A stretch of DNA of 57,494 nucleotides, from IMG/VR virus record IMGVR_UViG_3300049032_000056, positions 1 to 57,494 of that record, one strand, 5' to 3'. The notes under the pieces are model-generated. The model was not told the DNA's origin, did not search any database, and saw only the letters and a program-made list of their open reading frames with translations. A program made the translations under genes and the position numbers. The number at the start of each line of letters is the position of its first letter. The first letter of the stretch is position 1. Shown piece by piece: positions 1-36,342 of the stretch. Source of the DNA: a virus (taxonomy: Duplodnaviria > Caudoviricetes).

Positions 1-127
1 AGAACAAGCAACCAAAAACGACACAGATAATGGAACGCAAACCGTGGCAACAGAAGGCGGGAACGCAGACAGTTCAAAAGATTCCGGTCAGTAGCGGCCC
101 GATCCCTCACAAAGTAGGTAAGGGAAC
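1..127. repeat. Terminal direct repeat, identical to 57368..57494 (circular assembly overlap)
   Basis: Exact 127-nt match of the window start and end; ORFs read continuously across the join. Confidence 0.97.
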
Positions 128-167
128 GAAGAAGCCTGCTGATTTCATCGCAAAAGCTATTAAGTAA
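30..167 (+). CDS. Small basic hypothetical protein, 45 aa (MERKPWQQKAG...AKAIK), not in the ORF track
   Basis: ATG at 30, TAA at 165-167, 1 nt before the next ATG; overlaps the 57102 ORF across the join. Confidence 0.45.
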   Translation: MERKPWQQKAGTQTVQKIPVSSGPIPHKVGKGTKKPADFIAKAIK

Positions 168-168
168 C

Positions 169-336
169 ATGGCAAAGCAAAAGATTCTTACAATAGAGCA
201 CAAGGACTCGCTGGTACGTGACGATATCACGCAGGAAGAGTTTGATGGCTTACAGCCACGCATTCAGCGAATGTATAAAGTGGTAAAAGAGCGTGACGCA
301 GCAGAAGCCCCGGCGGAAGTTGCTAAACCAAAATAA
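169..336 (+). CDS. Small head-region protein, 55 aa (MAKQKILTIEHKDSLVRDDITQEEF...), not in the ORF track
   Basis: ATG at 169 to TAA at 336; resembles the N-terminus of 57102..57461. Confidence 0.75.
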   Translation: MAKQKILTIEHKDSLVRDDITQEEFDGLQPRIQRMYKVVKERDAAEAPAEVAKPK

Positions 337-459
337 TCGGGAACCCTACCGTACAGGGGAAAGAGTTTGGGTTGACTACCCGTAACAGGTCTTTTCAAAA
401 TAATTAAACCACTTGGCAGAAGTGCCGTAAACTTTTGGGTGTGAATCCCGTATCATTCT
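337..459 (+). promoter_or_regulatory. Leader with 3-4 tandem TTGG-(stem-loop)-CCGTA(A) motifs
   Basis: CCGTA at 349, 380, 425 and 448; the last three close clear GG..CC hairpins. Confidence 0.55.
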
Positions 460-1371
460 ATGGAACTAAACGAAGTTGCTAAAAACTTGCTGGCCGCGAT
501 TCTCAATGTAAGCCCCGATAAAGTGGCTGAAATGGCAGAGTCAGAAGAAGCGGAACAGCAATTCAAGGAACTGAACGCAACGAATTTGAAAAAGAGGTTT
601 GACGACGGACACAAGAAAGGAGTCAAATTTTCATCCAAAGAGTATATTGCAGCATTAAAATCGTCTTTGGACGTAGATGTGAGCGGTGAATCCCCGGAAG
701 ATATTGCAAATTCGATCAAGGAAGCGTTATCAGACCGCGACGCAGACGATATTTCGGAAGAAGCTGTAAAGGCCCACCCGTTATTCAAAGCGGAATCGGA
801 GAAAAGCCTCAAACTTGAACAGAGTTTCAATAAAGAGGTAGAGAAGAAAGCGAAGGTGTTAGTAAAGGAAAAGGAAACAGAGTTTGAAAGGAAGCTGAAA
901 GAAGCCAAGCGAAGCGGGTTTTTAACCGAAGCGGAAATGGCGGCAGAAAAGTGGCTCACTGAAAACAATGCAATCCTTTCCCCTGATCCCGAAAAGCGCA
1001 AGAAGCAGATCAAGGAACTCGCTAAAAAGCTGGATGCCTACGATCTGGACAAGGATGAAGACGGTCAATTCTTGATCAGCCAAGGCGCAACCCCGGTACT
1101 GAATAAAGAAGGCCACAACGCAAGCCTGTCAGACGTTTTTCAGGAGTACGACTACCTTTACAACTTCCAAACAGTTCAGCAACGCCAAAGCACAGGCATT
1201 AACCCAAATGCTCCGTCAAGCGGAAACAATGGGTTTAAGCATTACAAAGGTGAAGTTCCAAAAGATGAAGCAGGGATGAACGAATTGCGGACTAAGAAGC
1301 TTTACGGCGAATTGACCGCAGACGCATACAAGGAAGTTGAGGCGGCTTATGTAGCCAGCAAAACAGCGTAA
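460..1371 (+). CDS. Capsid scaffolding protein
   Basis: Highly charged, helical/coiled-coil, 303 aa, immediately upstream of the major capsid gene. Confidence 0.75.
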   Translation: MELNEVAKNLLAAILNVSPDKVAEMAESEEAEQQFKELNATNLKKRFDDGHKKGVKFSSKEYIAALKSSLDVDVSGESPEDIANSIKEALSDRDADDISEEAVKAHPLFKAESEKSLKLEQSFNKEVEKKAKVLVKEKETEFERKLKEAKRSGFLTEAEMAAEKWLTENNAILSPDPEKRKKQIKELAKKLDAYDLDKDEDGQFLISQGATPVLNKEGHNASLSDVFQEYDYLYNFQTVQQRQSTGINPNAPSSGNNGFKHYKGEVPKDEAGMNELRTKKLYGELTADAYKEVEAAYVASKTA

Positions 1372-1376
1372 CTTAA

Positions 1377-2489
1377 ATGGCACTTGGAGACTTTTCACCA
1401 TCAGCAATGCCCAAGCTCCTTGTGAGTCTGGATGATGCAACGACCGATTCACGCGTTCAGCAGCGTCAAGACCTGATGCCGGAATTGGGGATCATTGAAA
1501 TGATCAAAAATATTGAAACCGCAAACTGGAATTCAGTTCGCCCGGCAGATCGTTATTGCGAAGAGTTTGACGTTGCATGGCTTGAAGAAAGCGACACCGA
1601 AGCGGTTGTAGCAACAGGGCAAACGATGATTCACCGCCCCTTGTGTACAATCGATGGGGAAGAGCTTCAATCTGTTAAAACGTCCTACAAAATTGACAAA
1701 ACCGTAACATCTACCCTTAAAGTTAAGGATGAGGATTGCGGCAATATGTACGATTGGAACTCGAAAGTTCAACTTGGACTGAAACAGAGCTTTAAGAAAC
1801 TGCTGGTTGGTTTGGCGCAAGCCCTTCCCGCTTACGTGGATGCTTATTCAGGCGACAATCAATTGAATACGGCAGGATGGAACGGCCAGGCATGGAACAT
1901 TGGTTCGGCCAACGGTGCGTTTACCGAAATCGAGCCTTCGGATCTGACAGCAAACAAAGTCATTCCTTATTTGACAATGCTTGCTCAGATGAACAAACTA
2001 CAAAGCCCAGGTATCGTAGACGGCGGGTTGCTGTTTATGGACTACTGGAATGCACAAGCACAGGCCGGAACCGGAGCGGGGGACATTGGCAATGCCAACT
2101 TCTGGGCTCTGTGGAAAAACCGTTACGAGCTTGATGTTGTGAACATGGCAGCCGCTGGCTACCTGAACGCGGCGTTTGTGATTGATCAAGGTGCGCTTGC
2201 TTTGCCTATCGTTTCTTTCTTCCCACGCTTGGGCAGCGGAGAAAACGAAGTTGTGGCGAACAAATACATTTACTCTGTGCCTATCCCAGGTTACACACTT
2301 GGAGGCAACCCGGTTTATGTGGATATCACCTACACCAGGGCAGAAGAAGCAATCGCAGGCGGATCAGGACGTTGCCAAATCGTTCACACATTCCACATGC
2401 AATTGAAATTCAACCTGTGGCGTGCTCCGAAATACACTAGCGACACCACTACCGGTATCGTTACGTTGAAAGCTGGCGCGGCAGTATAA
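1377..2489 (+). CDS. Major capsid protein
   Basis: 370 aa, follows the scaffold in portal-head-scaffold-MCP order; composition fits an HK97-fold MCP. Confidence 0.75.
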   Translation: MALGDFSPSAMPKLLVSLDDATTDSRVQQRQDLMPELGIIEMIKNIETANWNSVRPADRYCEEFDVAWLEESDTEAVVATGQTMIHRPLCTIDGEELQSVKTSYKIDKTVTSTLKVKDEDCGNMYDWNSKVQLGLKQSFKKLLVGLAQALPAYVDAYSGDNQLNTAGWNGQAWNIGSANGAFTEIEPSDLTANKVIPYLTMLAQMNKLQSPGIVDGGLLFMDYWNAQAQAGTGAGDIGNANFWALWKNRYELDVVNMAAAGYLNAAFVIDQGALALPIVSFFPRLGSGENEVVANKYIYSVPIPGYTLGGNPVYVDITYTRAEEAIAGGSGRCQIVHTFHMQLKFNLWRAPKYTSDTTTGIVTLKAGAAV

Positions 2490-2498
2490 ACATAGCTT

Positions 2499-2807
2499 AT
2501 GGCTTCAACCTGCTACGACGTTTGGAGGAAACAGATTAACTCCAAAGGACAGTTAAAATGGGTGAATGAGGGACGTGCGCCAGACGGTGCATGTCCTGAC
2601 TGCCCACAAGCACAGTACCCGGCAGCCGGAACTTGGAACGGATATACCGCTGGTTGTCAGAATGGCAGCATTGTCAAATTTGTTGCAGACGGATCGGGCG
2701 GATTGATGCCGGGAGACGTGATTCAGGCAAGCGGAACGCCCAAAGCTATTGCAGCTTGCAATAATAGTTGGTATATTGGCACCGGCCCAATAAGCAACTA
2801 CTTTTAG
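2499..2807 (+). CDS. Small Cys-rich protein, possible capsid decoration
   Basis: 102 aa; carries a C..AGT...C...FVADGSGG module also seen in tail proteins. Confidence 0.6.
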   Translation: MASTCYDVWRKQINSKGQLKWVNEGRAPDGACPDCPQAQYPAAGTWNGYTAGCQNGSIVKFVADGSGGLMPGDVIQASGTPKAIAACNNSWYIGTGPISNYF

Positions 2808-3440
2808 ATGACTGCAATTTCCGAAATACTTTTAGTCAACAAGGTATTCGAATTGATCGATTACCAACCCGAAACGGCGCAGAAGTTGTATCTCGATATG
2901 ACGGAAAACGCCGTTTTTGATGCTTCTATGGTATCCGATAAGCGAGGGGATCTACTTGCTACTGAGGATACATCCTACATAAACATTGTCAATCAGGGAC
3001 GGATAAGTGAAACCGCGTGGGCGACTACGTTTAGCAGTCAGGCGCAGGCTACGTTATCGGCGTTACAGGAAGATATCGCGGCAATACTTGGTGTAGATAC
3101 TAACCAGTTCGAACCCTGGCAGTGTACGCGTTATTACGTAGGCGGCAAGTTTGATTATCACGACGATTGCGGAAATTGGGGGAGCAACGAACGCCTTTAC
3201 ACTGTGATGTATACCGTTCGCGCGGCTGATGTTGGTGGCGGCACTCATTTTGATCGTTTAGGGATCACGGTAAGTAGTCAGTTTGCAAAACTACTGATTT
3301 GGCGAAACCTAAATGAGGACTATCTTTGTGATGGAATGGCCCGTCACGCTGGTCTGCCCGTTGGCGGTGACGCTCATGAGCTGTTTGATGAGAAAATGAT
3401 TCTTGTAACCTGGATAAGACGATTTGAATATGTACCCTGA
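2808..3440 (+). CDS. 2OG-Fe(II) dioxygenase, prolyl 4-hydroxylase-like
   Basis: EPWQCTRY..GGKFDYHDD (HxD), R.YTVMY, GGGT.F, HAGLPV and distal K..LVTWIR follow the P4H catalytic pattern. Confidence 0.88.
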   Translation: MTAISEILLVNKVFELIDYQPETAQKLYLDMTENAVFDASMVSDKRGDLLATEDTSYINIVNQGRISETAWATTFSSQAQATLSALQEDIAAILGVDTNQFEPWQCTRYYVGGKFDYHDDCGNWGSNERLYTVMYTVRAADVGGGTHFDRLGITVSSQFAKLLIWRNLNEDYLCDGMARHAGLPVGGDAHELFDEKMILVTWIRRFEYVP

Positions 3441-4452
3441 TTGTTTAAAAGATATTGTTGGCCTTGTCCGGGATGGTTCAAAATGCTTGGAAGGAACAAC
3501 CATTTCCAATGTCTCCACAATCGATCTGTTTGTTGATCAAGATCCTTCGTATGACACATGCCGGTTTAAAGGCGGCGAGGTAATATGTAAGCTCATTGAA
3601 TTGATGAACGACAGGCGCGAAGAGGCTCTTAAAGCCATTACGCGTGATGTTGGCGCTATCCTGATGGGTAAGGTTAAAGCCCGGACTGATTTTAGCACCT
3701 TTATAGGCCAGAACAGTTTCAGTAGTGACTACTCACCGAGCCTTGTTCCTGCCAACCCATCTATTGAGATTTACACAGAGTACCAGCCAGGCGCGTACAT
3801 ACGCATTGACCGGATTGCTTTGATGATATACCCGAAAGCGGGAACAATCACCGTGCCGCTTCAAATATACCGTGTGTACGGCGAGAATGATGCCGTGTTG
3901 ATACATACATACAACATTGAGGTAGCGCGTCGCTCTACAACCTTAAATCCGGTCTTATCTTTCAATATCCCATGCGACGGCTTGACTTACCGTATTCAGT
4001 ACGAATTCCATGAGCAAACGATGACTGTGCCAATGTCTAACATTGAGTGCGGCTGTGGTGATCAATTGAGACAAGCACGCGGATTCCGCCTTGTGAACAA
4101 CCAGAAGTCATACGGAATAAGCCTGTGGGTTACCTACAAATGCTACGACGGGCAGGTGATCTGCAATTTACTTCGCGATGAGACGTACAGGCTCGTTATC
4201 GGGAATATGATCCGCCGTCAGATCCTTGTAATGATCATGCAGCGTATTTATGACAGCCAGGAGGTTAACCGGTACACCTTACTTTCATCGGAGGATATGG
4301 TCAACCGGATTGAGGCTTACAACCTGGAATACAATGAAAACCTGCGTTGGCTGTCAGAGCAACGAGAATACGATTTAGGGGACGGCTTTTGCCTGACCTG
4401 TGGGAGCGGCGGTAGTGGAATGAGGAAAGTTAACCTTTTGACGGGAGTGTAA
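3430..4452 (+). CDS. Putative head-tail connector/structural protein
   Basis: Position after the MCP; about 340 aa, Cys-rich; ATG at 3430. Confidence 0.5.
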   Translation: MYPDCLKDIVGLVRDGSKCLEGTTISNVSTIDLFVDQDPSYDTCRFKGGEVICKLIELMNDRREEALKAITRDVGAILMGKVKARTDFSTFIGQNSFSSDYSPSLVPANPSIEIYTEYQPGAYIRIDRIALMIYPKAGTITVPLQIYRVYGENDAVLIHTYNIEVARRSTTLNPVLSFNIPCDGLTYRIQYEFHEQTMTVPMSNIECGCGDQLRQARGFRLVNNQKSYGISLWVTYKCYDGQVICNLLRDETYRLVIGNMIRRQILVMIMQRIYDSQEVNRYTLLSSEDMVNRIEAYNLEYNENLRWLSEQREYDLGDGFCLTCGSGGSGMRKVNLLTGV

Positions 4453-4458
4453 AATTGC

Positions 4459-4992
4459 ATGAGCCTTGACGAATTCATAGCAAAGATGAAGAGCGACATA
4501 GAGATTCTTACTCGTGCCGCGCCGTCTATGTCCAATGAAATCGCAGAGTCAAGCCTTACGATGATCAAAGACCGGTCAATCAACGAAGGTATCAACATTG
4601 ACGGCAACGCTAACGAAAAGGCAGAGTATTCAACCCGCCCTACACGCACCGACAAATTCAGAAAGAATATTCTCAACAAAGCCGGGGATTCGTACATACA
4701 GGCCAATTTAATGGGTACATGGCACGGATTCAGAAAAGCACAGGGGTTAAGCAGTGCAAAAGTTAATCTGAGCTACACCAATGATATGTGGAGCAAAATA
4801 CAGGTTCTTAGCACGAACGAAACATCACCCGGAAAAGCTGAAACGACTGTCGGCACTTACGACGCTGAGACTTGGAAGAAAATGCAGTCCAATGAGTTCC
4901 GCTTTGGTGAGTTCCTTGTCCCGCTTCCAGAAGAGGTTCAGCTTGCGGAAGAAGTTTTGCAGGAAAAAATACTTAAATTACTGCGGCAATAA
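4459..4992 (+). CDS. Neck/tail completion (virion morphogenesis) protein
   Basis: Synteny plus a VNLSYTNDMW..I motif typical of tail completion proteins. Confidence 0.6.
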   Translation: MSLDEFIAKMKSDIEILTRAAPSMSNEIAESSLTMIKDRSINEGINIDGNANEKAEYSTRPTRTDKFRKNILNKAGDSYIQANLMGTWHGFRKAQGLSSAKVNLSYTNDMWSKIQVLSTNETSPGKAETTVGTYDAETWKKMQSNEFRFGEFLVPLPEEVQLAEEVLQEKILKLLRQ

Positions 4993-4994
4993 CA

Positions 4995-5261
4995 GTGTAT
5001 ATCAAGGTTCGAGATATAGTATCCAAGTGTACGGAGAAATCCGAGGGGATACGTGTCTACGAAAAATGTCAGTATTCGCTCTCTGAAAATATCATAAGCA
5101 TTGACTTTGACGGGGTGATGCAAGTAACCGACGAATTTGTTTTTGCATTGTTAGGAGAGATTGCCAAGCAGGATAAAACCGTAATCAACCGCATTCAGTA
5201 TGTCAGAATCCAGACTTATATCAAAACCCGGTTTAAAAGAGCGAGTAAGCGGCTCGCTTAA
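4995..5261 (+). CDS. STAS-like domain protein (DUF4325-like)
   Basis: 88 aa with EG..VY, ISIDFDGV..VT.EF...LLG pattern. Confidence 0.65.
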   Translation: MYIKVRDIVSKCTEKSEGIRVYEKCQYSLSENIISIDFDGVMQVTDEFVFALLGEIAKQDKTVINRIQYVRIQTYIKTRFKRASKRLA

Positions 5262-5448
5262 ATGGATCAGGGCGTTTTTCCTTATCTGTCTGGCATATAT
5301 TGTCATGTTGCTTGCCAGGGTGTGCGTATCGGTGGCAATTGTGCTGTTCGCGGTGGTGATGTTATTGTTTAACATACTGTTCGGATCGGTCAGCGCCGGT
5401 AATGCAATCATTGCCTTTGGCGAAGCACTTAAAAAACACAGGATATGA
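5200..5448 (+). CDS. Small membrane protein
   Basis: Long hydrophobic segment; ATGA coupling to the next gene. Confidence 0.55.
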   Translation: MSESRLISKPGLKERVSGSLKWIRAFFLICLAYIVMLLARVCVSVAIVLFAVVMLLFNILFGSVSAGNAIIAFGEALKKHRI

Positions 5449-6056
5449 CCCACGAAATTGCAAAGGTGCTTGCCGGATCATTGCGGCCCCTATATAATCA
5501 GGAGTTGATAAGCGTATTGGTGGGGTTGGTCAAGTTGGTTACGCAGGATCGCGACAACAGGACGATCCGATTCCCAATTCCTTATGACTTTGATGCTGCG
5601 GCGGTGCAAATGGAGAATGTGGATGTGATTCCAGATCAAAAACACAGGGCTATCGTATATTTTGAAGGGGATAGTTCAGATTTGACCTCCTTTGAGCCAA
5701 AGAGCAGCCGCGCCAGGACAGACTTGCGGCTTGTTTGCTGGTACAATAGCATGGCTTACCAAGTGCCGGATGGCAACAGGGAGACAATCCATGCGGTTCT
5801 TGTATCGCAGATCCTTACACACCTTAAAGCGGCAAGGCCAACGCAGAACGGGATCGTTGCGGCGTTCAAAATAGAGCCCACAAGGATTTATGACAGCGCA
5901 CAGTCGCTGTTCACCAAGTATTCATACCACCAGACGCGCGGACAATACCTTCAATCTCCGTATTTTGCCTTCGGGATAGATGTTACAGTGACTTATCAGA
6001 TCAATCATGGATGCACAACAACACTTATTGCTGTCGAGCCTGATAACTGCTGTTAG
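5445..6056 (+). CDS. Putative tail terminator protein
   Basis: Synteny; about 200 aa alpha/beta protein. Confidence 0.5.
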   Translation: MTHEIAKVLAGSLRPLYNQELISVLVGLVKLVTQDRDNRTIRFPIPYDFDAAAVQMENVDVIPDQKHRAIVYFEGDSSDLTSFEPKSSRARTDLRLVCWYNSMAYQVPDGNRETIHAVLVSQILTHLKAARPTQNGIVAAFKIEPTRIYDSAQSLFTKYSYHQTRGQYLQSPYFAFGIDVTVTYQINHGCTTTLIAVEPDNCC

Positions 6057-6393
6057 TATCGGCATCGCTTCGGGCGTAATGGGATCGGTTTACGTGTTTA
6101 AGCTAACACAGCCGGGGCATATATTAGGCGGATGGGCGCGTGTCCTTACAAACGTAGTAAGGTATATTATTAGCAAGACAACTAACGATGAATGGAAGCG
6201 CACCGAGCGGGAAGAGTACTGGTTAAAACCGGTTTTGACCTGTGAATTATGCGTTTCAGGACAGATAGCATTGTGGACGTGGGTTTATACCCTGTTTTAT
6301 TCTTTCAGCTTTTTTAGCGTAACTTTTGGCTTAATTTTCTGTATATGTCAAGCAATCCTGACGGCGTGGCTGATAGCCAAGTTGGAGAAGTAG
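6007..6393 (+). CDS. Membrane protein with CxxC (DUF1360-like)
   Basis: About three TM segments; KPVLTCELCVSGQ motif. Confidence 0.6.
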   Translation: MDAQQHLLLSSLITAVSIGIASGVMGSVYVFKLTQPGHILGGWARVLTNVVRYIISKTTNDEWKRTEREEYWLKPVLTCELCVSGQIALWTWVYTLFYSFSFFSVTFGLIFCICQAILTAWLIAKLEK

Positions 6394-6893
6394 TAGAAAC
6401 ACCAATTATTCAGTTGCCCGACAAGACCCGGTTCTTTGAGGCTGGTGGGTGTAAGTACCAAGTAGAGGAAGAAATAACGGTAGGGCGCTATAAGCACTAT
6501 CAGCAAATGGAAGTGCAGTTAGGTTTCACGGTTTCCTTTTCGTCGCTGGTGGATATGATGAAAGGGGCTTACTCCGCATTGAATGAACGTCGGGATGCAG
6601 ACGCGGCAGTCCTGATAAAACAAATGCTGGAAGGAGCTACGCTTATCGTTGAGAAAAAACCAATTGCTTTATACGTCGCAACACTGTTTATTAACAGGCC
6701 GGATGAGAACCGGGCGGAATGGAGTCAGGCGCTGGCCGAGGAAAAGATTAAGCACTGGGAGAATATAGATGCCAATTTTTTTTTAGGGTCAGCTCTCGCG
6801 TGGGTGAGAAGATTTCCAGAGAAATACAAAGAAATAGCTCAGATGCTACAAAAAGTAAGTCAGGTAAAAAGTCAAATGGAGTCGTACGAGTAA
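6345..6893 (+). CDS. Tail assembly chaperone (gpG-like)
   Basis: Lies upstream of the tape measure gene; contains a T9 slippery run at 6776-6784. Confidence 0.75.
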   Translation: MSSNPDGVADSQVGEVVETPIIQLPDKTRFFEAGGCKYQVEEEITVGRYKHYQQMEVQLGFTVSFSSLVDMMKGAYSALNERRDADAAVLIKQMLEGATLIVEKKPIALYVATLFINRPDENRAEWSQALAEEKIKHWENIDANFFLGSALAWVRRFPEKYKEIAQMLQKVSQVKSQMESYE

Positions 6894-7120
6894 GGCGGGA
6901 TGAGGACGGCAATAAGGTCGAGATATACGCCGGACTGATGACACACATGAGGGAGGTTCACGATTACTGGTCACACATTCAGCAGTCATTGTCGGATGTG
7001 TTTTCGATAACAGAGCAGAACAGAATGAATATTATTGAGTTCCTGAGACATCAAAGGATTTGGGAAAAACGGGCCAGGCAGCGCTTGGAACACATGAAGT
7101 CGAAAAATGGCAAACGTTGA
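6776..7120 (+). CDS. Tail assembly chaperone -1 frame extension (gpGT-like)
   Basis: The -1 frame is open from 6752 through the slippery site to 7120. Confidence 0.7.
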   Translation, partial: FFFRVSSRVGEKISREIQRNSSDATKSKSGKKSNGVVRVRRDEDGNKVEIYAGLMTHMREVHDYWSHIQQSLSDVFSITEQNRMNIIEFLRHQRIWEKRARQRLEHMKSKNGKR

Positions 7121-10100
7121 GAGTACCTATGTATTGGATATGGATCCTTTTCTGTCACCCCTTCGCAAGGGGGTTGCAGAATTGGAGTCTTTTAGAGATA
7201 AATTAAATGAACTATCAAACGACCCTTTTAAGGAGGCGACAAAAGGCGCTGGGGCGCTCGAAAAAGAGCTTACGGACAATACAAAGAAAGTTGTCGAACT
7301 GGAAGCGGTCACTACCCAATACAAGGAGGAAGTAAAGCAGCTTACCTCGGAACTTGCCCGGCAGAAAAAGGAAATGAAGAGCCTTGCCGACGCGAGTAAG
7401 TACAAACAGATGGAGGGGCAGGTAAAAGCCCTGAAAGAAGAAATCAAGAAACTTAACGGCGAGCTTCGCAATACCAGCAAAACCACTTCCGCCTTGTCTC
7501 GGATAAAAGGAGGGTTGCTTGGAGCGATTACAGGCAATTTGACTGGCGGCGGCGCGGGAACGCAGGCTGTTTCTGGGATATTAGGGGCGATCAATCCAGT
7601 ATTAGGAGTTACCGCTGCGCTTCTTGGCAGCGTGGCGACCCGCGCTTTTGAAGCTACCGGGAAGTGGCAAAGTTATAGTGTAGCCTTAAAGAGCTCACTC
7701 GGCTCTCAGCAACTCGCTAACACAAATCTCTCTGTGTTGGAAGAATTGGCCGTTAAGTTACCTATAACACTTAATGAAGCTACACAAGCCTTTCAAATAC
7801 TGGTCAATAGAGGGTTTAAGCCCACAAAAGATGAAATAAATAACCTGTCGGGGTTTGCTGCCGCCAATAATAAGACGATTGATCAATTAATCCAAGCTAT
7901 TGTTGATGCAGAAGAGGGCGAGCTTATTAGGCTAAAAGAGTTTGGAATTCAGGCCAGGACTGAGGGGGATAAAGTTTCTATTACTTTCAGGGGCATCACT
8001 AAGACGTTCGAAAAAGGCGCAAGGGAGAGCACCGCAGCATTTGCCGACCTTGCAAGGGAGTTGGGGAGCGACAAATTAAACGCGGACAAAATGCTGACGC
8101 TCGAAGGAAGAATGTCCAATCTTTCTGACCAAAGCGACAGGGTATCTAGGAAATTTGGCGAGCTTCTTCTGCCGGTATTCGAAGCGGTGCTTAATGTGGT
8201 TAGCAAAACTCTGGGGGTTATTGATAGTGCAATAACCGGCTGGACGGACTTCGACAAGGTTCTTGCAAAAACAGGAAATACGGCTTCTGTCAATACATAT
8301 CCCACGCTGCAAAAATTATTTAACTTATTCAAGTCGGACTCCCAAGAGGGGTTTAGCATTAAAGAGAGGTTTTTCTTGATGCAAGCTGGCTTGGAGAAGG
8401 TTTTGGTTACAGCAGAGGCGACAGCCGCTGTTCTATCGAATCTATTCAACCCACAGCAGATAGCGGTTTCAATGGGTTTATGGAGGCAGGGGATTGATAA
8501 TATAAACAAAACCACAAAAAGGTATTTTCTAGACCAGAGAAGATCACGTAGAAGAGGATCAACAGAAGGTGATTTTGAGTACGACCCCAACTCCCCAGGT
8601 GGTAACACAGGCCCCACGGCAGACGAGATAAAGCTGATGGAAAAGAGGGCTAGGGAATTAGCCAAGCTGGAAGAAAAACTCAAAGACGAACTCCTGAAAA
8701 TTGAAAACGAATACGGCAAAGAGAAGCTGGATGCGCTGAAAGATAACGAACTAGAATATATTGAGGCAAAACGCAAGTACGATCAGGCGCGTATCGATCA
8801 GGAGCAACAGGCTTTGTTAAAGCTCAAACAGCTTGTTTCAGGCGCACGCAGAGGCATGTACGACCGGAACGGGAAAGTGATTGCTGACCAGTCGGCGACA
8901 TTATCAGGGGCGGAAACGGCACCTTTTGACTTCCGTAGGCAGTTGGTGGACGATCAGGCATCAAAAGAACGCGCTGAATTCATCAACAAGGCCGAAAAAC
9001 AGATCACCGAGCTACTTTCCAACGAATTCCAGAAGCAATTACAAGAGATCGAATACCGCTACGAAAAGGAAATAGAGCTTGCCCGTAAAGCTGGAATCGA
9101 TATCGTTAAAATACAGAAGCAAAAGGAGAAAGAGGTTGCGAAGGTATTGTCTGATAAAGGCATTGCAGACCTAGAAAAACAGGCCTTGCAGGAGCAGACC
9201 GACGCGGAGCGAAACATTATCCGGGCGCAGATCGAAGGGCGCACAGACCTTGAATTAGAGGCACGTGCGGGGCTTCTGGAAATCGAAAAGAAATACCAGC
9301 TTGCGAAGATCAAACTCATTGAAGCGTCCGGCGACGAAGAGTCGGAAGCGCGTATTGCAGCCATAAAAAAGGTGATCGATCAGATCGACCTTGAAATAAG
9401 CGAGATTGCCGACAAACAAAAAGATCAGAAAGGCATTGGAAAGTACTTGCAGTCTCAGCTTGGCATGTCTGATGATAAGATTGACGAAACACTTGAAGCG
9501 GCAGAGCTATTTTCGAGTAAGATGCAGTCTATTATGTCGGACTTGTACTCTACCCTAAATAGACTCTCAGAGAACCGAATTCAGCGCATCAATGATGAGA
9601 TAAGCAAAAAAGAGGATCAAGTCCGTACAGAGGAAGAATTGAACAAAGAAGGCGTTGCAAACAACCTTTCTCTGCGCTTAAAAGAGCTTGCCGATCTGAA
9701 AGATGCACGTGAGCGCGCTTTGGAAGATCAAAAGAGGCTACAACGCACACAAATGATTGTGGAGACGGCGACACAGGCAAGCTCAATGATCACGGCAGCG
9801 TCAAAGGTTTACTCAGGATTTGCCGGGATACCCATCGTAGGGGTAGGGCTTGGTATTGCAGCGGTGGCATTAATGCTAGGCGCTTTTGCGGCGGCCAAGA
9901 TAAAGGCATTCCAGTTGGTCAATCAGCAACCGGCCCAATTCGGCGAAGGTGGGGATGTTGGGGGTAATCTGCACCGTGACGGCGGCACACTGATCGAAGC
10001 GGAGAAAGGCGAGTACGTGGTTAACAGACGCGCTACCAGTGAGCACCACGACCTGATTGAGGCGATTAACAACAACGACCGTGGAGGCATTATGGATTAC

Positions 10101-10385
10101 CTGTTAAAAGACCTTTTGGACGGAACAGGGGTGACGATGAATGATATGCAGCGCCGGGAGGGTATAAAGTTGATGACAGAGTTCAGGAAGAGCAATGACA
10201 ATCAGAAGAATGAGGTAGTAGAGAAACTAGAAGAGCTTAAAAAAGAGCTTGAAATGATTAAAGCGGCTACTGGTAGACTTCCCCGTAAATTCCTGCTACC
10301 TATTGGCAACAACAAGATTTACGAAAAGGATATTTTGAGTGGAAGTTGGTCAATAAATGATGTTTCTGATTTTATTAAAAAGTAA
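7107..10385 (+). CDS. Tail tape measure protein
   Basis: 1092 aa; coiled coils, tape-measure N-domain (LPITLNEATQAF..LVNRGF), TM segments, C-terminal GG.H..GG..IEAEKGEYVVN motif. Confidence 0.92.
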   Translation: MANVESTYVLDMDPFLSPLRKGVAELESFRDKLNELSNDPFKEATKGAGALEKELTDNTKKVVELEAVTTQYKEEVKQLTSELARQKKEMKSLADASKYKQMEGQVKALKEEIKKLNGELRNTSKTTSALSRIKGGLLGAITGNLTGGGAGTQAVSGILGAINPVLGVTAALLGSVATRAFEATGKWQSYSVALKSSLGSQQLANTNLSVLEELAVKLPITLNEATQAFQILVNRGFKPTKDEINNLSGFAAANNKTIDQLIQAIVDAEEGELIRLKEFGIQARTEGDKVSITFRGITKTFEKGARESTAAFADLARELGSDKLNADKMLTLEGRMSNLSDQSDRVSRKFGELLLPVFEAVLNVVSKTLGVIDSAITGWTDFDKVLAKTGNTASVNTYPTLQKLFNLFKSDSQEGFSIKERFFLMQAGLEKVLVTAEATAAVLSNLFNPQQIAVSMGLWRQGIDNINKTTKRYFLDQRRSRRRGSTEGDFEYDPNSPGGNTGPTADEIKLMEKRARELAKLEEKLKDELLKIENEYGKEKLDALKDNELEYIEAKRKYDQARIDQEQQALLKLKQLVSGARRGMYDRNGKVIADQSATLSGAETAPFDFRRQLVDDQASKERAEFINKAEKQITELLSNEFQKQLQEIEYRYEKEIELARKAGIDIVKIQKQKEKEVAKVLSDKGIADLEKQALQEQTDAERNIIRAQIEGRTDLELEARAGLLEIEKKYQLAKIKLIEASGDEESEARIAAIKKVIDQIDLEISEIADKQKDQKGIGKYLQSQLGMSDDKIDETLEAAELFSSKMQSIMSDLYSTLNRLSENRIQRINDEISKKEDQVRTEEELNKEGVANNLSLRLKELADLKDARERALEDQKRLQRTQMIVETATQASSMITAASKVYSGFAGIPIVGVGLGIAAVALMLGAFAAAKIKAFQLVNQQPAQFGEGGDVGGNLHRDGGTLIEAEKGEYVVNRRATSEHHDLIEAINNNDRGGIMDYLLKDLLDGTGVTMNDMQRREGIKLMTEFRKSNDNQKNEVVEKLEELKKELEMIKAATGRLPRKFLLPIGNNKIYEKDILSGSWSINDVSDFIKK

Positions 10386-12202: not shown

Positions 12203-12438
12203 TGAATAACTACGTAATCTTCTACCCGGAAGTGGGTATTACACAAAAGAAAACTCTAATTCCTCATTGGATGTATCATATGGGTAAATCCATAAAAGAC
12301 AAAGAGGCGAGGAAAGTTTATTTTGACGGGCTAGGAGATTATTTTACAGACGAATCCCCGTTGTTCTTTGCAATGGGAACAGGAATACTAAACTGTAACG
12401 GCAAACACAAGGTACAATTCTCAAAATGCAATGAATAA
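12202..12438 (+). CDS. Hypothetical protein
   Basis: Translationally coupled ORF, 78 aa. Confidence 0.55.
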   Translation: MNNYVIFYPEVGITQKKTLIPHWMYHMGKSIKDKEARKVYFDGLGDYFTDESPLFFAMGTGILNCNGKHKVQFSKCNE

Positions 12439-15400
12439 CTACTTACACGGATTGCCTTTTGCAGCCGGACCAGCAAGCGCATCGGACTGTAACTGCCCCG
12501 GCCAGGCATTCGACCCTGTTGACTTTAAGCTGTACTCGCAGGATGACCGGTTGCCTACTTTTGTGCTGCGCCTACCCGCGATGGGCGAAAACCCTGACCT
12601 TACCTATGCCGCTGAATGTATCCGCGTCTTTACCTGTGATGGGAAAGAAATGGTTCGCAGTATCACAATGGAAGAGGCTGGTATACGCATCGTAAAAGAC
12701 ACAGCATCGTACTATCTTACTTATGATGGCAGTATCATTGAAGGTATAAAGCTGGAATGCGGCAAATGCTACCGGCTTAAAATCATGTCCTTTTGGTCTG
12801 AATTGTTCTGGGTTACAGACATTCCGCAATCCAAAGTCCTGATCGAGCTATCTAATAAGTCGCAGTTAGGTGATGTGCCGTACCAGGCTCCTTTGAATTT
12901 TGTTCAAAAGATACTGCTAGACGGGGATATCTGCTCGCTAGACGCAGAGCTTTTCCAGAACAAGAAAACGGACGCTAACGGCAATGAAACGGCTACTTTC
13001 CAGCGCATGACAACGCGTAAGAAGTTGACTATATCTTCCGCTCCCGAATTTATCGAACAGATTGCAAAGTCTATCGAGCTTCACAATAATTTCACCGTAT
13101 CCCAAAAAGGCATCACGCACACGCCGATACCGGGCCGGACAACCGTAGAGTCATCGCAGCTTGATTGTTGCCGCTATGACCTGAATATCACGCTACCATT
13201 AAGGGATGTCAACATATTGGGCGGTGTCTGTCAGTCTGACGCGCAAGGAACGCTTGTGGAGGTTGATATTCCAGATGAATTACCCGACTCATGCGAGGTG
13301 GACGGCGACTGGGAATATACAGACGATCCGCCTTTGTGTTTGAAGATAGGGGAGGTTCCGCCGCCGATCACTCCGCCTATTACGCCAGTAGGGACACCAC
13401 CGGTAGGCGCTCCGTGTCCACCCGAAGGAACGGTAGTCAATTCCAACACGCAAACGGTAAGCTGTGAAAATGCTTTCATCTTTGAGGGGCTTCGGTATAA
13501 GAAGAAAGTTACAAAGAGCATTGCGGACGGAAGCTGCGGCACAACACCAGAGGTTCAATACGTTGATCAGTGCCAAGACGACCTTGTTGTCCACACAATC
13601 AGCAATGTAGTATGCCAAAATGTTATACCTGTTCCACCAGTAGGCACGCCGCCGGTGGGTACACCTCCGGTTGGGACTCCGCCAGTAGGAACCCCACCTG
13701 TCGGTACGCCGCCGCCAGTAGGTACGATTGGTACTAATTACGGGGCGTTCAATACAAAGGTTAACGGCAGATATTACACATATAGCAAAGCGCCTAAGTT
13801 TGATATTCAGTTTAACTCTGACGGCACCATCAGCGACGTAACGCCGGGGCTTATAACAACCGGATCTGTAAATATTCAGGACGGGCAGAATGTATTTTAC
13901 ATGCAGGATTACCTTGCCCTTCGCAATGAGGACGGGACAGCGTTTAAGATGCAAAATGCTTACTTCCCTGACATGATAATGACATTGCGCAAGTTTGTGA
14001 TGAACCCCACCAAGTTCCCTGACCAAGCGGCGTTTGACGCGAACGAAAGCGATAGCGGGTACGACACGACAGGCGTTAACATGAAAAACGGGTACGTGGC
14101 AGAAGTTTTCATGTCCATCACTTCTGATATAAAGCAAGGTACCGGGTTGGCCCCCAAAGGATTAACGGTAAGCAGGATTAATAACTTCCTTGACTTTACG
14201 CCAAATCAAGACTGGGCAGCGTACAATAAGTATTGCGCGGTCACATGGATGAACAAGGGTGACTCACAGGCTAGCTTCATACAAAAAGGAGTGCTGCCTA
14301 ACACGCTACTGGGTCAAGGGCCGCAGCCCCAAACGTGGCTCACCTTTAAGAATGGGCAGAATGAGGTAAAGACAGCAGAGCAGCTTTATGATCAAGGCCG
14401 GGCAACAATGTGGCTGTTGGGTAGCTCGCCAAGATCAATCTATACATCTGAGTACATTGAGAACGAGCAGGGGCAAGGGCCCGGAAATGAGTTTTTCAGG
14501 ACGGCGCAGGCGTACAGGGGAGCATTCGACGTGATAACTGAAAATCATCCCGGCACGAACGTTAAAAACACTGGATTATTTGGAGAGTATGGCAGTGACG
14601 ACTACTACGGTTTGTTTGCAAAAGGAATCTTGAAAGCCAGCCGCGCAGACTACGAGCTTTACTTGACAGACAATATCTACAAAAGCCACGGAATAAATGG
14701 TTTCGGGGCCGGAACGCATGAATATTTTACGCAAGGGCAAATCAATTACAGGAACCTGAATAGTAGGTATTATTTCTATCAGCGCAAGTATCATTACGTG
14801 TACGAGTTCTTGACTTGGAACGAGAAAACAAAGTTAAGCACAAAGACTTATGACGGCCAGGATAGGGAACGTTCATGGGCGGTGTTTACTGCGACATCCA
14901 TCGAGAACATGGCAATTGACAATACCGGCAGTAAGGTAGGGATAGAACAAACCAGGACAGGGGAAATTATCCCTTACCCGAATGGAGAGTTATTGACCCG
15001 GTTGAATACTCAGCCACCTATGCCGTGGGGGGCTGCATTCGATGTTGGTATATGGGGCACGCTGCTATCTAGTGCTGTTATTAACTGGGATGCGCCCAAC
15101 TCGCTACTTGGAAGTGACCAAAGTAAGGTGAACTGGTATAGCGATCAACAGGTACAGTGGCGACCAACAGGCTCCGGATCATGGGAGCCGTATGTTCCCG
15201 GACAAAACGGAGCGCCAGCCAACAGCAGTGACGGCCTAAAAAATAGTCTCTTTTCAAGTGTTACCGATGCTTTGATCGCTGGGCGAAACGCACTGTGGGC
15301 TATACGGGACAGGATGCAAAACCTTAGACACGTGCCTTACACGAGTAGTAGGGGTGGGTTTTCGCCAACACCAGGTCAGGCCGGGTATCATTTGAATGGT

Positions 15401-15598
15401 CACGGCCCGGTTAACTGGGGACAGTTCACGGCCAGGGACATTTACGATAACAAGGTAGGCGCGGCGATTCGCGGCGACGGAATGGTGATCTACAAAAACG
15501 AATACCTTCCTGCCAACCTTTACGAAGACAATGTAACTATTGCAGGGCATAACTTAGGTCGGGTTTATGGCGGACAGACGGCTATTGGTTTATTATAA
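12431..15598 (+). CDS. Large tail protein with a Pro-rich linker and a C-terminal putative receptor/carbohydrate-binding domain
   Basis: 1055 aa; Cys-rich N-terminus, (PPVGT)n linker, G/N/T/Y/W-rich C-terminus. Confidence 0.7.
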   Translation: MNNYLHGLPFAAGPASASDCNCPGQAFDPVDFKLYSQDDRLPTFVLRLPAMGENPDLTYAAECIRVFTCDGKEMVRSITMEEAGIRIVKDTASYYLTYDGSIIEGIKLECGKCYRLKIMSFWSELFWVTDIPQSKVLIELSNKSQLGDVPYQAPLNFVQKILLDGDICSLDAELFQNKKTDANGNETATFQRMTTRKKLTISSAPEFIEQIAKSIELHNNFTVSQKGITHTPIPGRTTVESSQLDCCRYDLNITLPLRDVNILGGVCQSDAQGTLVEVDIPDELPDSCEVDGDWEYTDDPPLCLKIGEVPPPITPPITPVGTPPVGAPCPPEGTVVNSNTQTVSCENAFIFEGLRYKKKVTKSIADGSCGTTPEVQYVDQCQDDLVVHTISNVVCQNVIPVPPVGTPPVGTPPVGTPPVGTPPVGTPPPVGTIGTNYGAFNTKVNGRYYTYSKAPKFDIQFNSDGTISDVTPGLITTGSVNIQDGQNVFYMQDYLALRNEDGTAFKMQNAYFPDMIMTLRKFVMNPTKFPDQAAFDANESDSGYDTTGVNMKNGYVAEVFMSITSDIKQGTGLAPKGLTVSRINNFLDFTPNQDWAAYNKYCAVTWMNKGDSQASFIQKGVLPNTLLGQGPQPQTWLTFKNGQNEVKTAEQLYDQGRATMWLLGSSPRSIYTSEYIENEQGQGPGNEFFRTAQAYRGAFDVITENHPGTNVKNTGLFGEYGSDDYYGLFAKGILKASRADYELYLTDNIYKSHGINGFGAGTHEYFTQGQINYRNLNSRYYFYQRKYHYVYEFLTWNEKTKLSTKTYDGQDRERSWAVFTATSIENMAIDNTGSKVGIEQTRTGEIIPYPNGELLTRLNTQPPMPWGAAFDVGIWGTLLSSAVINWDAPNSLLGSDQSKVNWYSDQQVQWRPTGSGSWEPYVPGQNGAPANSSDGLKNSLFSSVTDALIAGRNALWAIRDRMQNLRHVPYTSSRGGFSPTPGQAGYHLNGHGPVNWGQFTARDIYDNKVGAAIRGDGMVIYKNEYLPANLYEDNVTIAGHNLGRVYGGQTAIGLL
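13634..13726 (+). repeat. Coding repeat (PPVGT)x5 + PPPVGT
   Basis: 15-nt units with identical amino acids but different synonymous codons. Confidence 0.95.

Positions 15599-22306: not shown

Positions 22307-22310
<4 letters not shown>
21996..22310 (+). CDS. Tail fibre adaptor / BppU-like N-terminal domain protein
   Basis: DGTPLDLTG motif and C-terminal TLVEGKFTL; precedes the fibre gene. Confidence 0.55.
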
Positions 22311-24847
<2,537 letters not shown>

Positions 24848-29430: not shown

Positions 29431-29792
29431 TCCCGTTTCATTTTGAAGTAATTGATAAATTCTTTTGTGGCCTTAAATCCAGCCTTCTCAAATAATGACT
29501 TTGATTTTTTTGTGGCAGTGGTTGAGAATTCCCCGGACGGGAGCATTGATAATAGCATAGAGCCTACGCCAAACTTGCGAAACGGAAAGAATACATACAG
29601 GTATTTGACCTTTTTACTGTATGGGTTCCAACAAATGAAGCCTCTTTGTTTCTCGTCAAAAATCCAGGTATCACCTATTTCAACGAAAAGCGATTCACCT
29701 AACTCTTTTACTACTTCCCGCCCATTAAATATTAAATAATGGTCGTACATCAACTTTTTTATGTCTTCGGAGGTCTTTATATGATATTCCAT
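29427..29792 (-). CDS. GNAT-family acetyltransferase
   Basis: LYV..PFRKFGVGSMLL (motif A) and S.SLFEKAGF (motif B). Confidence 0.8.
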   Translation of the reverse strand: MEYHIKTSEDIKKLMYDHYLIFNGREVVKELGESLFVEIGDTWIFDEKQRGFICWNPYSKKVKYLYVFFPFRKFGVGSMLLSMLPSGEFSTTATKKSKSLFEKAGFKATKEFINYFKMKRE

Positions 29793-30985
29793 TCTTTCCG
29801 TCGTTTTGCCATTAATTCCAAATATCTTTTATAGGCGTTAGTCTTAGTAATACCAAAGCCCAATCCACGGCAATACCAATCGTTTCGAAGAAGTATTTTA
29901 ACAATCAGCCTCCATGAAGGCGCTTTGCCTATCTGCTCCATTCGGTAATTAGCCGCGTCTGGTATACCTGTTTCATATCCACGGTCGTAATACCACTTCA
30001 AATACACTGCTATTTTGTTCTCATAGTGCAGGCTGGTCTTTTCGGGCATTGTCCCCAATAAGAACTTTGCAAACGATTCCCATGTGTGACCAGGCGGTAG
30101 CGACACTTTCTCATTGCCTAAGATGTTGCCTTTTTCTTGTGAGTATAAAGAAGCTGAGTTAATTCCGGCCAGTCTGGCAACGAATTTTGACCATGTGACT
30201 GGCTCTATGATCTGGTATAACCAGAGGTTTTTACGCGCCTCATCGCCAAAAGGCTCATCAATACGCATTTGTGATGGCGATAAGCCTGCTTGGTGCATAA
30301 GGTCGTACACGCGGTTGTATTGAAGCTTTTCTTTTGCAAAGAACGTCCAAATGTCATCAACCAACCAGTCAAATATCGGGTACACGTTACACACAGATTC
30401 AGAGACAATAGTCGTGTATTTCCTGCCTTTGAATCGAGATACTTTGTTGCTTGTTACTGCCCGGTGCCTGTTGAGGCTTTCTTGTGCGCGGATACCTACA
30501 AAGCATGCGCATTCCTGTCCGTCTGCATACCAATCCCCGAACGCTGGTGTAAACTCTTCAAACGTTATTCCGGGATAGTAGAATGGAAACAGGCTCCCGT
30601 CGGCAATGGCGACAGCAGGTTTTTTGCGCGTCCAGAGCTCTTTTTTATTTTCATCCCATGATCGCCACATCGGTTCGTAATAGCTGCACGCGGATGAGGT
30701 TTCTATTTCCAGGCAGATCCAATACAGGTCAATGTGCTCTGCGTTTTCGGTCACCAAATGAAGCAGGTGGTCGGCAGTATATTGATACTGGCATTCCCAA
30801 TCCAATATAAACACGCCTATCTTTCTATTTCTGCGCCTTGCTTCCGCAATTACCAAGTAAAATAAGGCCGTGCTGTCCTTTCCTCCTGACAGGGATACAT
30901 AAGCCTTGTCGAAGCTATCGAACGTGTCTGATATGCGACGTTTCGCCGCCTCCAACACGTCGATGCCGATCATAGTTTTAAGCAT
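29777..30985 (-). CDS. ibrA: PAPS-reductase-fold / DUF3440 protein, IbrA/YbdN-like
   Basis: SLSGGKDS PP-loop, GIRAQESLNR, YPIFDW...DIW, YN..YDLM.QAG, PSWR and LRNDWYC..LGF. Confidence 0.9.
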   Translation of the reverse strand: MLKTMIGIDVLEAAKRRISDTFDSFDKAYVSLSGGKDSTALFYLVIAEARRRNRKIGVFILDWECQYQYTADHLLHLVTENAEHIDLYWICLEIETSSACSYYEPMWRSWDENKKELWTRKKPAVAIADGSLFPFYYPGITFEEFTPAFGDWYADGQECACFVGIRAQESLNRHRAVTSNKVSRFKGRKYTTIVSESVCNVYPIFDWLVDDIWTFFAKEKLQYNRVYDLMHQAGLSPSQMRIDEPFGDEARKNLWLYQIIEPVTWSKFVARLAGINSASLYSQEKGNILGNEKVSLPPGHTWESFAKFLLGTMPEKTSLHYENKIAVYLKWYYDRGYETGIPDAANYRMEQIGKAPSWRLIVKILLRNDWYCRGLGFGITKTNAYKRYLELMAKRRKEWNII

Positions 30986-35630: not shown

Positions 35631-36342
35631 TCTCCATTATGGTTGGTTTAGTGTACCACGGCAATGCAAGCGAGTCGTAAAACTTCCTGCACGCCTCTAT
35701 TCTTACCTTTAACGCTTCGATCTTCTCAGGTTCAAACTGGAATTCAAACACTTTGATCCGGCTTCCGGTCGGGAGCTCCTCGATTAGGTCATTATTCCGG
35801 TCTATCTGCTCACAAGCTTTGATGTAATGCTTGTTAGACTCATCCCCGCCAAACTTATAAAACCAGCGCCTTTTTTCGCCGTCTAAGATGTGATCGGGAG
35901 TCTTAACGAGGCAATACACCAGTCGGTAGTTTTTCTTGCCTGTGAGCCACATGTACCCCTGCCCTTGCCACCAGTAGTTCCTTGCCAGATCCGACTCTGT
36001 AAAGGTTCGAAGGTTGAAGGAGGTTTTAACGTCCTCCACGTAGTCTTCATGCTTCAAAATAACGTCCGGCGTTCCGCAAACAAAGTCGTTTTTAAAGAAC
36101 TCGCTGTTTTTCATCCTGAATTCTCCGCCTACTACTTTCTGAACGAGTCCCAATGAATCGTCCTCACAAATCATGCCTTTTAATAACTCATCCGTCATAA
36201 AATCTTCGCGGTAGCCGTATTCTCTTTCGAGCCACATTTGCCGCAAGAATGTTTCGGTCGTTTTTGAAAGATCCTTGCTCTTTTCCCGCGCGTCGGTCAT
36301 AATGTCTCCTAGCCGACTACATCTGAATAGTACGTTGCTCAT
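35611..36342 (-). CDS. Lambda exonuclease/YqaJ-like PD-(D/E)xK nuclease
   Basis: R.S, KG...E, GTPD, DVKTS and Q.QGYMWLTG motifs. Confidence 0.85.
   Translation of the reverse strand: MSNVLFRCSRLGDIMTDAREKSKDLSKTTETFLRQMWLEREYGYREDFMTDELLKGMICEDDSLGLVQKVVGGEFRMKNSEFFKNDFVCGTPDVILKHEDYVEDVKTSFNLRTFTESDLARNYWWQGQGYMWLTGKKNYRLVYCLVKTPDHILDGEKRRWFYKFGGDESNKHYIKACEQIDRNNDLIEELPTGSRIKVFEFQFEPEKIEALKVRIEACRKFYDSLALPWYTKPTIMENETDNT

Follow-up and report, generated by a model that had tools for sequence, protein, structure and literature searches.

The stretch of DNA analysed here (the window) is a 57,494-base sequence that constitutes a complete virus record with direct terminal repeats (IMG/VR record IMGVR_UViG_3300049032_000056) and belongs to a siphovirus-like, uncultured tailed phage. 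Structural and lysis genes occupy the plus strand from 50.5 kb to the end and then from position 1 to 26 kb, and replication, DNA-metabolism and other genes occupy the minus strand at about 26-50 kb. This report concerns an open reading frame (ORF) in the head-gene block, at 2808-3440, that is predicted to encode a collagen-type prolyl 4-hydroxylase (P4H), and the Pro-rich linkers of a tail protein of the same phage that are candidate targets of the enzyme.

The P4H gene in the head block

The gene and its immediate surroundings comprise the following features.

1377-2489, plus strand: major capsid protein (MCP) with an HK97 fold, assigned from a structure model and Foldseek
2499-2807, plus strand: 102-aa Cys-rich protein without an assigned function, between the MCP and P4H genes
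2808-3440, plus strand: collagen-type P4H, 210 aa (P0001), predicted from Pfam, profiles, an AlphaFold2 (AF2) model, Foldseek and VIA-align
3159-3161, plus strand: H118, predicted Fe ligand
3165-3167, plus strand: D120, predicted Fe ligand
3345-3347, plus strand: H180, predicted Fe ligand
3393-3395, plus strand: K196, predicted 2-oxoglutarate (2OG)-binding Lys
3424-4452, plus strand: 342-aa protein of a viral-only family without a known domain, overlapping the P4H stop by 17 nt

A preliminary description of this DNA had placed the enzyme two genes after the MCP and away from the genes of DNA metabolism. The ORF at 1377-2489 has no Pfam or PHROG match. Its AF2 model (pLDDT 76.5) was built on an alignment of 22 of the 26 homologue clusters, the four shorter ones being omitted, and the Foldseek matches listed for it were without exception capsids of phages, archaeal viruses or a satellite, or encapsulins. 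Since these fold matches are all of capsid type, the first of the two statements is correct, with the 102-aa ORF in between; the second also agrees with the gene map, in which the DNA-metabolism genes lie on the minus strand.

Sequence and predicted fold of the enzyme

Against Pfam, the P4H ORF matched PF13640 (2OG-FeII_Oxy_3) at a borderline 27.3 bits (cut-off 27); this was the sole family at E <= 1, with no AlkB-type family. A weak match to phrog_61 ('2OG-Fe(II) oxygenase') was also obtained. A large protein collection yielded 38 homologues with 49-72% identity, all of 186-215 aa. In the clade alignment (A1), which holds 36 of 39 rows including the query after omission of the shorter P0008, P0009 and P0023, the residues H118, D120, H180, K196, R65, S67 and R204 and three Cys (C106, C121 and C174) are invariant in all 36 sequences. 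The P4H motif set is thus intact, with a Lys and not the Arg of AlkB-type enzymes, as had been claimed from the single sequence. A wider alignment of 39 sequences (A3) comprised four clade members and 35 single-domain proteins from approximately the first 47 of 150 listed, long multidomain proteins being excluded; here H118, D120 and H180 are again invariant, and K196, R65 and S67 are kept in at least 90%. Specific to the clade is an insert of six residues, between H180 and K196, that places the latter 16 residues past the former, not about 10.

When aligned with the P4H of Bacillus anthracis, the viral P4H (vCPH) of the chlorovirus PBCV-1 (Paramecium bursaria chlorella virus 1) and the human collagen P4H (C-P4H) alpha-2 subunit, H118 and D120 coincide with the HxD motif (HYD) and H180 with the distal His. 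The counterpart of K196 is the Lys of 'GEK' in the B. anthracis enzyme and vCPH and of 'GCK' in human alpha-2. In collagen-type P4Hs it is this Lys of the last core strand that engages 2OG through its C5 carboxylate. By alignment, R65-x-S67 would correspond to the RxS peptide-loop motif (IRTS in B. anthracis P4H, YRVSKS in human alpha-2), which we take to be Arg93/Ser95 in the numbering of the Chlamydomonas reinhardtii enzyme (Cr-P4H).

Searched against all Protein Data Bank (PDB) sequences, the A1 profile gave significant matches to P4Hs only: vCPH (5c5t, E = 5e-12), B. anthracis P4H (about 6e-11), human C-P4H alpha-2 (9e-7) and Chlamydomonas P4H (7e-4). No chain of a prolyl hydroxylase domain (PHD) enzyme was listed at E <= 10. 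With the A3 profile the matches extended over nearly the full length, to B. anthracis P4H (5.5e-30), vCPH (7e-27), human C-P4H alpha-2 (1.7e-26) and Cr-P4H (2e-26). An exhaustive profile search of 1.84 billion representatives returned 3,837 relatives at E <= 1e-3 and just 11 at E <= 1e-30, which indicates that the phage P4H clade is compact. For ten of the nearest relatives outside the clade, source names were obtained for only two clusters, in both cases 'prolyl 4-hydroxylase'. A scan of genome contigs gave a single weak match of 37 residues in Paracoccaceae, and a scan of metagenomes gave three short contigs.

The AF2 model of the enzyme (pLDDT 90.4, pTM 0.88) is a double-stranded beta-helix with the N-terminal alpha/beta extension of P4Hs. 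Its best VIA-align match is Cr-P4H in complex with (Ser-Pro)5 (3gze_A; Z 22.3, root-mean-square deviation 2.3 over 182 of 210 aa), followed by vCPH (5c5t_A, Z 19.2), the Pseudomonas prolyl hydroxylase PPHD (18.9) and PHD2 (about 18.3). Prolyl hydroxylases account for 49 of the 50 VIA-align entries listed; the exception, 6n1f, is an unassigned oxidoreductase of the 2OG-oxygenase family, and no AlkB entry is present among the 50. The top Foldseek ranks are all P4Hs.

From its residues and predicted fold, we firmly assign ORF 2808-3440 as a genuine P4H of the collagen/plant/chlorovirus type and a divergent new member of that family, and in all likelihood it acts as a protein prolyl hydroxylase. 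Three other assignments were set aside. An AlkB-like enzyme is improbable in view of K196, which is not the AlkB-type Arg, and of the Pfam result; the lack of AlkB among the 50 VIA-align entries listed is by itself no argument against that family. Enzymes of the group formed by the hypoxia-inducible factor (HIF) PHDs and Pseudomonas PPHD have an Arg at the site of the 2OG C5 carboxylate; the phage protein has a Lys there, and its Z-scores to that group are 18-19 vs 22.3 for Cr-P4H. The animal C-P4H holoenzyme is an alpha2-beta2 tetramer with protein disulphide isomerase and an N-terminal peptide-substrate-binding domain, whereas the phage protein, at 210 aa, is the catalytic domain alone and in this respect resembles the monomeric or dimeric microbial and viral P4Hs.

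Conservation of the locus in the lineage

The gene order scaffold, MCP, small Cys-rich protein, P4H and 342-aa protein, continuing to the tape measure, is the same in the window, in a complete relative of 57,634 bp (G001) and in a further locus (L002). The P4H of the window shares 61% identity with that of G001; the corresponding figures are 59% for the MCP, 59% for the portal and 57% for the terminase. Using equal size of the longest contig as a proxy for the same contig, 16 of 26 MCP clusters could be paired with a P4H cluster, and 14 of 17 among those with contigs of at least 6 kb. The P4H is therefore kept as tightly as the capsid, portal and terminase and is a core gene of the structural module. 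The MCP, P4H and tail protein of a Dyadobacter sp. genome carry the locus tags 02768, 02769 and 02779, respectively, which hints at Bacteroidota hosts for the lineage; the related element in this strain may permit genetics. The INPHARED collection held no DNA-level relative of the phage, and a protein search of it gave only two remote matches, at 29-31% identity.

The 102-aa gene terminates in TAG, and the ATG of the P4H gene follows without a gap. A homologue of this small protein lies between MCP and P4H in 5/5 loci in which this stretch is visible (the window, L001, L002, L006 and L007), with C5, C32, C35, C53 and a 'CP..[YF]P' motif conserved. No family match was found for it; a role in head decoration or as a partner of the P4H is conceivable. 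The 342-aa neighbour was placed by a protein atlas in viral clusters without a family, and an NCBIfam search gave zero matches for the P4H, its neighbours and the tail protein. A promoter and terminator scan of positions 1-8000 found fewer sites than shuffled sequences (7 vs 10.6 and 5 vs 9.1), based on a sigma-70 consensus that may not apply to the host, and none between the MCP and P4H genes. With its neighbours abutting and overlapping it, the P4H gene would be transcribed together with the late head-tail genes.

Pro-rich linkers of a modular tail protein

The preliminary description had named two Pro-rich linkers as potential substrates, and both are present in a single ORF.

12431-15598, plus strand: modular tail protein, 1055 aa (P0040), candidate substrate
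13343-13432, plus strand: linker 1, aa 305-334, VPPPITPPITPVGTPPVGAPCPP
13619-13729, plus strand: linker 2, aa 397-433, six PPVGT units

This protein is encoded two genes 3' of the tape measure and is the only plausible gene product of the window with at least 6 Pro per 15 aa. Its 26 homologues (P0070-P0095; the linker-only rows P0096-P0098 and the self row were set aside) have only the N-terminal ~430 aa in common with it, and their C-terminal domains are swapped. At least three tandem PPVG[T/S] units occur at the same place in 21 of the 26, the linker 1 motif P[VI]GTPP[VL] occurs in 23, and longer relatives have extra (PPVGT)n ahead of the C-terminal domain. Some of the relatives' linkers give a weak Pfam match to Extensin_1.

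The domain flanking the linker has diverged to 47-70% identity, with no change in the pentapeptide. In DNA, the six PPVGT units of the window exist in six versions that differ at a mean of 3.87 of 5 synonymous sites; 58/58 differences fall on the third base of a codon, and replacement sites show none. The eight units of G001 show the same pattern, with 109/109 differences at third positions. Units that are identical in protein and synonymously scrambled in DNA have been kept at the protein level and are not the product of recent DNA duplication, and the PPVGT peptide itself is under selection. A complex prediction for the P4H (A1) with tail-protein residues 392-440 scored 0.12 against a mark of 0.32, without controls, and speaks neither for nor against binding.

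The linkers also resemble a known class of substrate. In the plant proline-rich protein (PRP) pentapeptides PPVYK and PPVEK, the second Pro is often hydroxyproline (PMC4020777; PMC11062476). The PPV core shared with these repeats makes PPV a known target context of P4Hs.

Two further features of the tail proteins were noted. A PF00144 beta-lactamase-like serine hydrolase domain is present in 8/26 homologues, and the (PPVGT)n linkers form the joints of the tail-protein domains and look like domain-shuffling points.

Pro-rich repeats and oxygenases in other phages

Co-occurrence of the enzyme with Pro-rich linkers had been put forward as a check. A scan of IMG/VR for DNA encoding (PPVGT)3 found five contigs, including G001, and a broader scan for (PPxGT)3 found 30, of which 28 were searchable. 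PF13640 was above the cut-off in six of the 28 (G001, G004, G010, G013, G019 and G024) and in none of 24 control contigs, the latter drawn from chance matches to a back-translated E-x-WQATRY pattern (25 viral loci). The searched DNA totalled 852 kb for the (PPxGT)3 set and 679 kb for the control. The difference has a one-sided Fisher p of 0.019, or 0.045 when the near-duplicates G010/G013 and G019/G024 are merged. The 25 E-x-WQATRY loci had been considered as a wider P4H family, and this was rejected because none of them encodes a P4H relative by hmmsearch.

Outside the lineage, repeat and oxygenase genes can lie close together. G004, a 177-kb contig in which the MCP of the lineage is not present, has a tail-fibre cluster (L040 9809-13652) with two small proteins, one with (PPVGT)n and one with (PVGT)n at its end. 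Its sole PF13640 gene (58 bits, PKHD/PiuC-like) lies 2.8 and 0.6 kb, respectively, behind them, and a fatty-acid desaturase gene lies further on past the oxygenase. In both G010 and G013, a gap of 2 nt separates the gene of a (PPDGT)6 protein from the oxygenase gene behind it:

L049 6422-8624 (L053 alike): 539-aa Ser/Thr/Gly-rich protein with (PPDGT)6 near its C-terminus, followed by a 193-aa PF13640 oxygenase

Two tandem 2OG-oxygenase-like genes were observed in G019 (L072 1483-2707; G024 alike) about 7 kb from the gene of a 1269-aa PPTGT/PSPPSGT-repeat protein. Across loci L045-L069, (PPxGT)n is common in varied phage proteins, including scaffold-like and tape-measure-like ones; the residue x is A, E, D, G, T, S, M or V.

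Collagen-like sequences

Two other potential substrates of the same genome, both with Gly-X-Y (GXY) triplets, were considered.

22307-24847, plus strand: collagen-like tail fibre, 846 aa, secondary candidate substrate (Pfam Collagen, 2.8e-27; PHROG tail-fibre families)
22361-22855, plus strand: collagen region of the fibre, 55 GXY triplets
57330-57374, plus strand: five GXY triplets in a 119-aa protein

Pro occurs nine times at X and once at Y (GLP) in the 55 triplets, consistent with the earlier remark that it lies almost only at X. G001 also has a collagen fibre. The short stretch at 57330-57374 does exist as described; it is not conserved in G001, and we rejected it as an unlikely substrate. 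At its C-terminus the fibre carries a GDSL/SGNH hydrolase domain (Lipase_GDSL_2, PF13472, 1.3e-8), which suggests an esterase, perhaps a deacetylase, acting on a polymer of the host surface.

Comparison with known prolyl 4-hydroxylases

The closest viral parallel is PBCV-1 A085R (vCPH), the best sequence match of the A1 profile, which is likewise a small single-domain enzyme with HxD...H...K and a C-terminal 'HAGLPV...EK....WIR' motif. Its peptide preferences were reportedly described by Eriksson et al. in 1999. PBCV-1 also encodes Pro-rich repeats, and enzyme and repeat protein thus occur in one virus, as they do in the window, in G001 and in the lineage. In contrast to PBCV-1 with its algal host, the phage has a bacterial host, carries the gene inside the head-tail operon of a 57-kb genome and offers one defined candidate, a tail protein with PPVGT units. 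Its enzyme differs from vCPH by the six-residue insert between the distal His and the Lys and by the three clade-invariant Cys. The chlorovirus P4H is packaged in the virion, its gene is present in all chloroviruses and its role is unknown (PMC7019647).

Cr-P4H (P4H-1; 3gze, 2jig) is the best fold match, and the substrate type of this enzyme and of the plant P4Hs acting on extensin and PRP repeats, an extended polyproline-II repeat, is like that proposed for the phage. Identity between the phage enzyme and Cr-P4H or the plant P4Hs is only ~20%, and, unlike plants and algae, the phage has no secretory pathway, no glycosyltransferase was found in it, and its five-residue units contain Gly-Thr. 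B. anthracis P4H (3itq, 5hv0, 5iax, 5v7y) is of similar size (~215 aa), has a Lys at the 2OG site and is the best A3 match. It is, however, a chromosomal bacterial enzyme, and the substrates reported for it are collagen-like (PPG)n peptides (PMC8968730) and, in a PDB entry title, EF-Tu, not a phage protein.

Phage 'P4HA' or 2OG-Fe(II) oxygenase genes (phrog_61) are listed among the auxiliary genes of viromes, and their use is called cryptic (PMC9301287). The gene described here is no sporadic accessory: it belongs to the core of the structural block throughout its lineage, and a specific candidate substrate comes with it. A literature search, which did not cover subscription journals, turned up neither a characterised P4H from a phage nor a report of hydroxyproline in phage particles.

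Proposed role of the enzyme

Most likely, the P4H would use O2 and 2OG to hydroxylate prolines of the phage's own structural proteins, and we lean towards a virion protein as its substrate. The best candidate targets would be the PPITPVGTPPVG and (PPVGT)6 linkers of the 1055-aa tail protein, which connect a conserved N-terminal anchor with a small Cys-rich domain and a C-terminal domain that is exchangeable; in these polyproline-II spacers, hydroxyproline would add stiffness or stability. Modification of the PPVGT linker specifically is the best single explanation on circumstantial evidence, and we regard it as plausible rather than probable. More tentatively, the lineage as a whole may possess a virion modification system in which a head-operon P4H turns the PPVGT/PPITP spacers of a modular tail protein into hydroxyproline-containing polyproline-II rods, probably in Bacteroidota hosts. 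The preference for the PPVGT linker voiced in the preliminary description is accordingly retained in a circumstantial form, on the grounds of co-conservation in the lineage, synonymous scrambling, likeness to PRPs and co-occurrence; the dismissal of collagen that accompanied it is weak.

Several observations weigh against this proposal. The P4H gene lies about 10 kb from the linker, in the head block and not beside the tail protein. Five of the 26 tail-protein homologues are without tandem PPVG[TS] and have variants such as TPPVVTPPVV, and two of these five are paired, by the equal-size proxy, with a P4H-bearing contig. Conversely, by the same proxy, an MCP and tail-protein homologue pair on a 40,629-bp contig has no matching P4H cluster, and this contig may represent a relative with three PPVG[TS] units and no P4H. 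Co-conservation inside one syntenic lineage is in any case not independent evidence. Beyond the lineage, 22 of the 28 (PPxGT)3 contigs, many of them fragments, are without a PF13640 gene, as are three of the six that are at least 60% complete, so that such linkers need no hydroxylase. The repeat-adjacent oxygenases found elsewhere fall into different PF13640 subgroups (PKHD/PiuC-like, Arg type), and BLASTP shows no similarity between them and the phage enzyme. Pfam searches of 57 ORFs of the window found no glycosyltransferase, which leaves a plant-like hydroxyproline-glycan route without phage-encoded support. Finally, the chlorovirus precedent is weaker than had been implied, as hydroxyproline was not detected in PBCV-1 virion proteins (PMC7019647).

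The strongest competitor holds that the P4H acts on a host protein, such as EF-Tu or another translation factor, late in infection or after ejection with the DNA, and that the linkers are ordinary spacers. Solved relatives are associated with EF-Tu, namely Pseudomonas PPHD in complex with EF-Tu (4iw3, Z 18.9) and, by its entry title, B. anthracis P4H 5v7y (Z 17.6), and the frequency of (PPxGT)n contigs without an oxygenase is in keeping with it. A place in the head block would suit a packaged protein, and the P4H of PBCV-1 is a virion component, with no hydroxyproline detected in the virion proteins (PMC7019647). Against this stand the late-operon position of the gene, with no sign of early expression; a best fold match to the plant/algal type with bound peptide, at Z 22.3 as against ~18-19 for the EF-Tu and HIF types; and the Lys at the 2OG site, vs the Arg of the PHD/PPHD group. 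Selection on the PPVGT peptide would also be left unexplained, and we consider a host target unlikely.

That the collagen-like fibre is the main substrate, with hydroxyproline stabilising its triple helix, we judge improbable. The fibre does provide 55 triplets with ten Pro and is shared with G001, and the closest solved relatives of the enzyme include collagen P4Hs. However, just one of the ten Pro is at Y, the helix is rich in KGD/KGE charge pairs, bacterial collagens are stable without hydroxyproline (PMC8968730), and collagen-like fibres are common in phages without a P4H. Pro at X had been the ground for setting the fibre aside, and this ground is weak, since in (PPG)n the enzyme of B. 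anthracis hydroxylates Pro at X as well as at Y (PMC8968730).

A substrate among the adjoining head proteins (the capsid, 102-aa Cys-rich or 342-aa protein) would fit the tight coupling of these genes to that of the P4H, and the 102-aa protein accompanies the enzyme in all five visible loci with the prolines of 'CP..[YF]P' kept. On the other hand, none of the three proteins contains a Pro-rich or polyproline-II-like segment, and the consecutive MCP and P4H tags in Dyadobacter indicate that the small gene may be absent or uncalled there; such a substrate is decidedly improbable. A Pfam score barely above the cut-off, in a family (PF13640) that includes enzymes with other substrates, would allow an enzyme that is inactive or acts on nucleic acid (AlkB-like) or a small molecule and not on protein prolines, but with catalytic residues all invariant, the RxS peptide-loop motif kept, no AlkB-type family in Pfam at E <= 1, and peptidyl-prolyl hydroxylases as all top sequence matches and 49 of 50 listed fold matches, we give this very little credence.

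Since PBCV-1, P4H genes have been known in viruses, and they are abundant among the auxiliary genes of aquatic viromes. For the proposal that the phage P4H modifies its own tail linkers, the lineage is a clean test case, with one small enzyme and one defined candidate substrate that has a five-residue motif. If true, hydroxyproline would be demonstrated for the first time in particles of a bacteriophage, as a counterpart among bacterial viruses to the PRP/extensin chemistry of plants. The joint occurrence of Pro-rich linkers and PF13640 oxygenases in unrelated phages would also have an explanation, and, through the need for O2, tail-protein mechanics or host adsorption could depend on how well the producing cell is supplied with oxygen. 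If false, the lineage would point to host-protein hydroxylation as the use of viral P4Hs.

Other features of the genome

The remaining genes of the plus-strand structural and lysis block that were assigned are as follows.

52215-53600, plus strand: large terminase
53870-55678, plus strand: portal
460-1371, plus strand: probable scaffold
7107-10385, plus strand: tape measure
Plus-strand structural/lysis block: GH108 endolysin, large tail proteins and the collagen-like fibre

Two overlapping ORFs just 5' of the tape measure (6345-6893 and 6800-7120) have the position of the tail assembly chaperone pair, which is often produced by programmed frameshift. A PAPS-reductase/DUF3440 protein, presumably IbrA-like, is encoded on the minus strand (29777-30985), and a separate ParB_N-domain protein is encoded on the plus strand (51200-51736); these may form a DNA-modification or regulatory pair. 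The minus-strand genes at 33984-35129, 36339-36752 and 43340-43765 encode a DNA polymerase III beta sliding clamp and two YopX-domain proteins.

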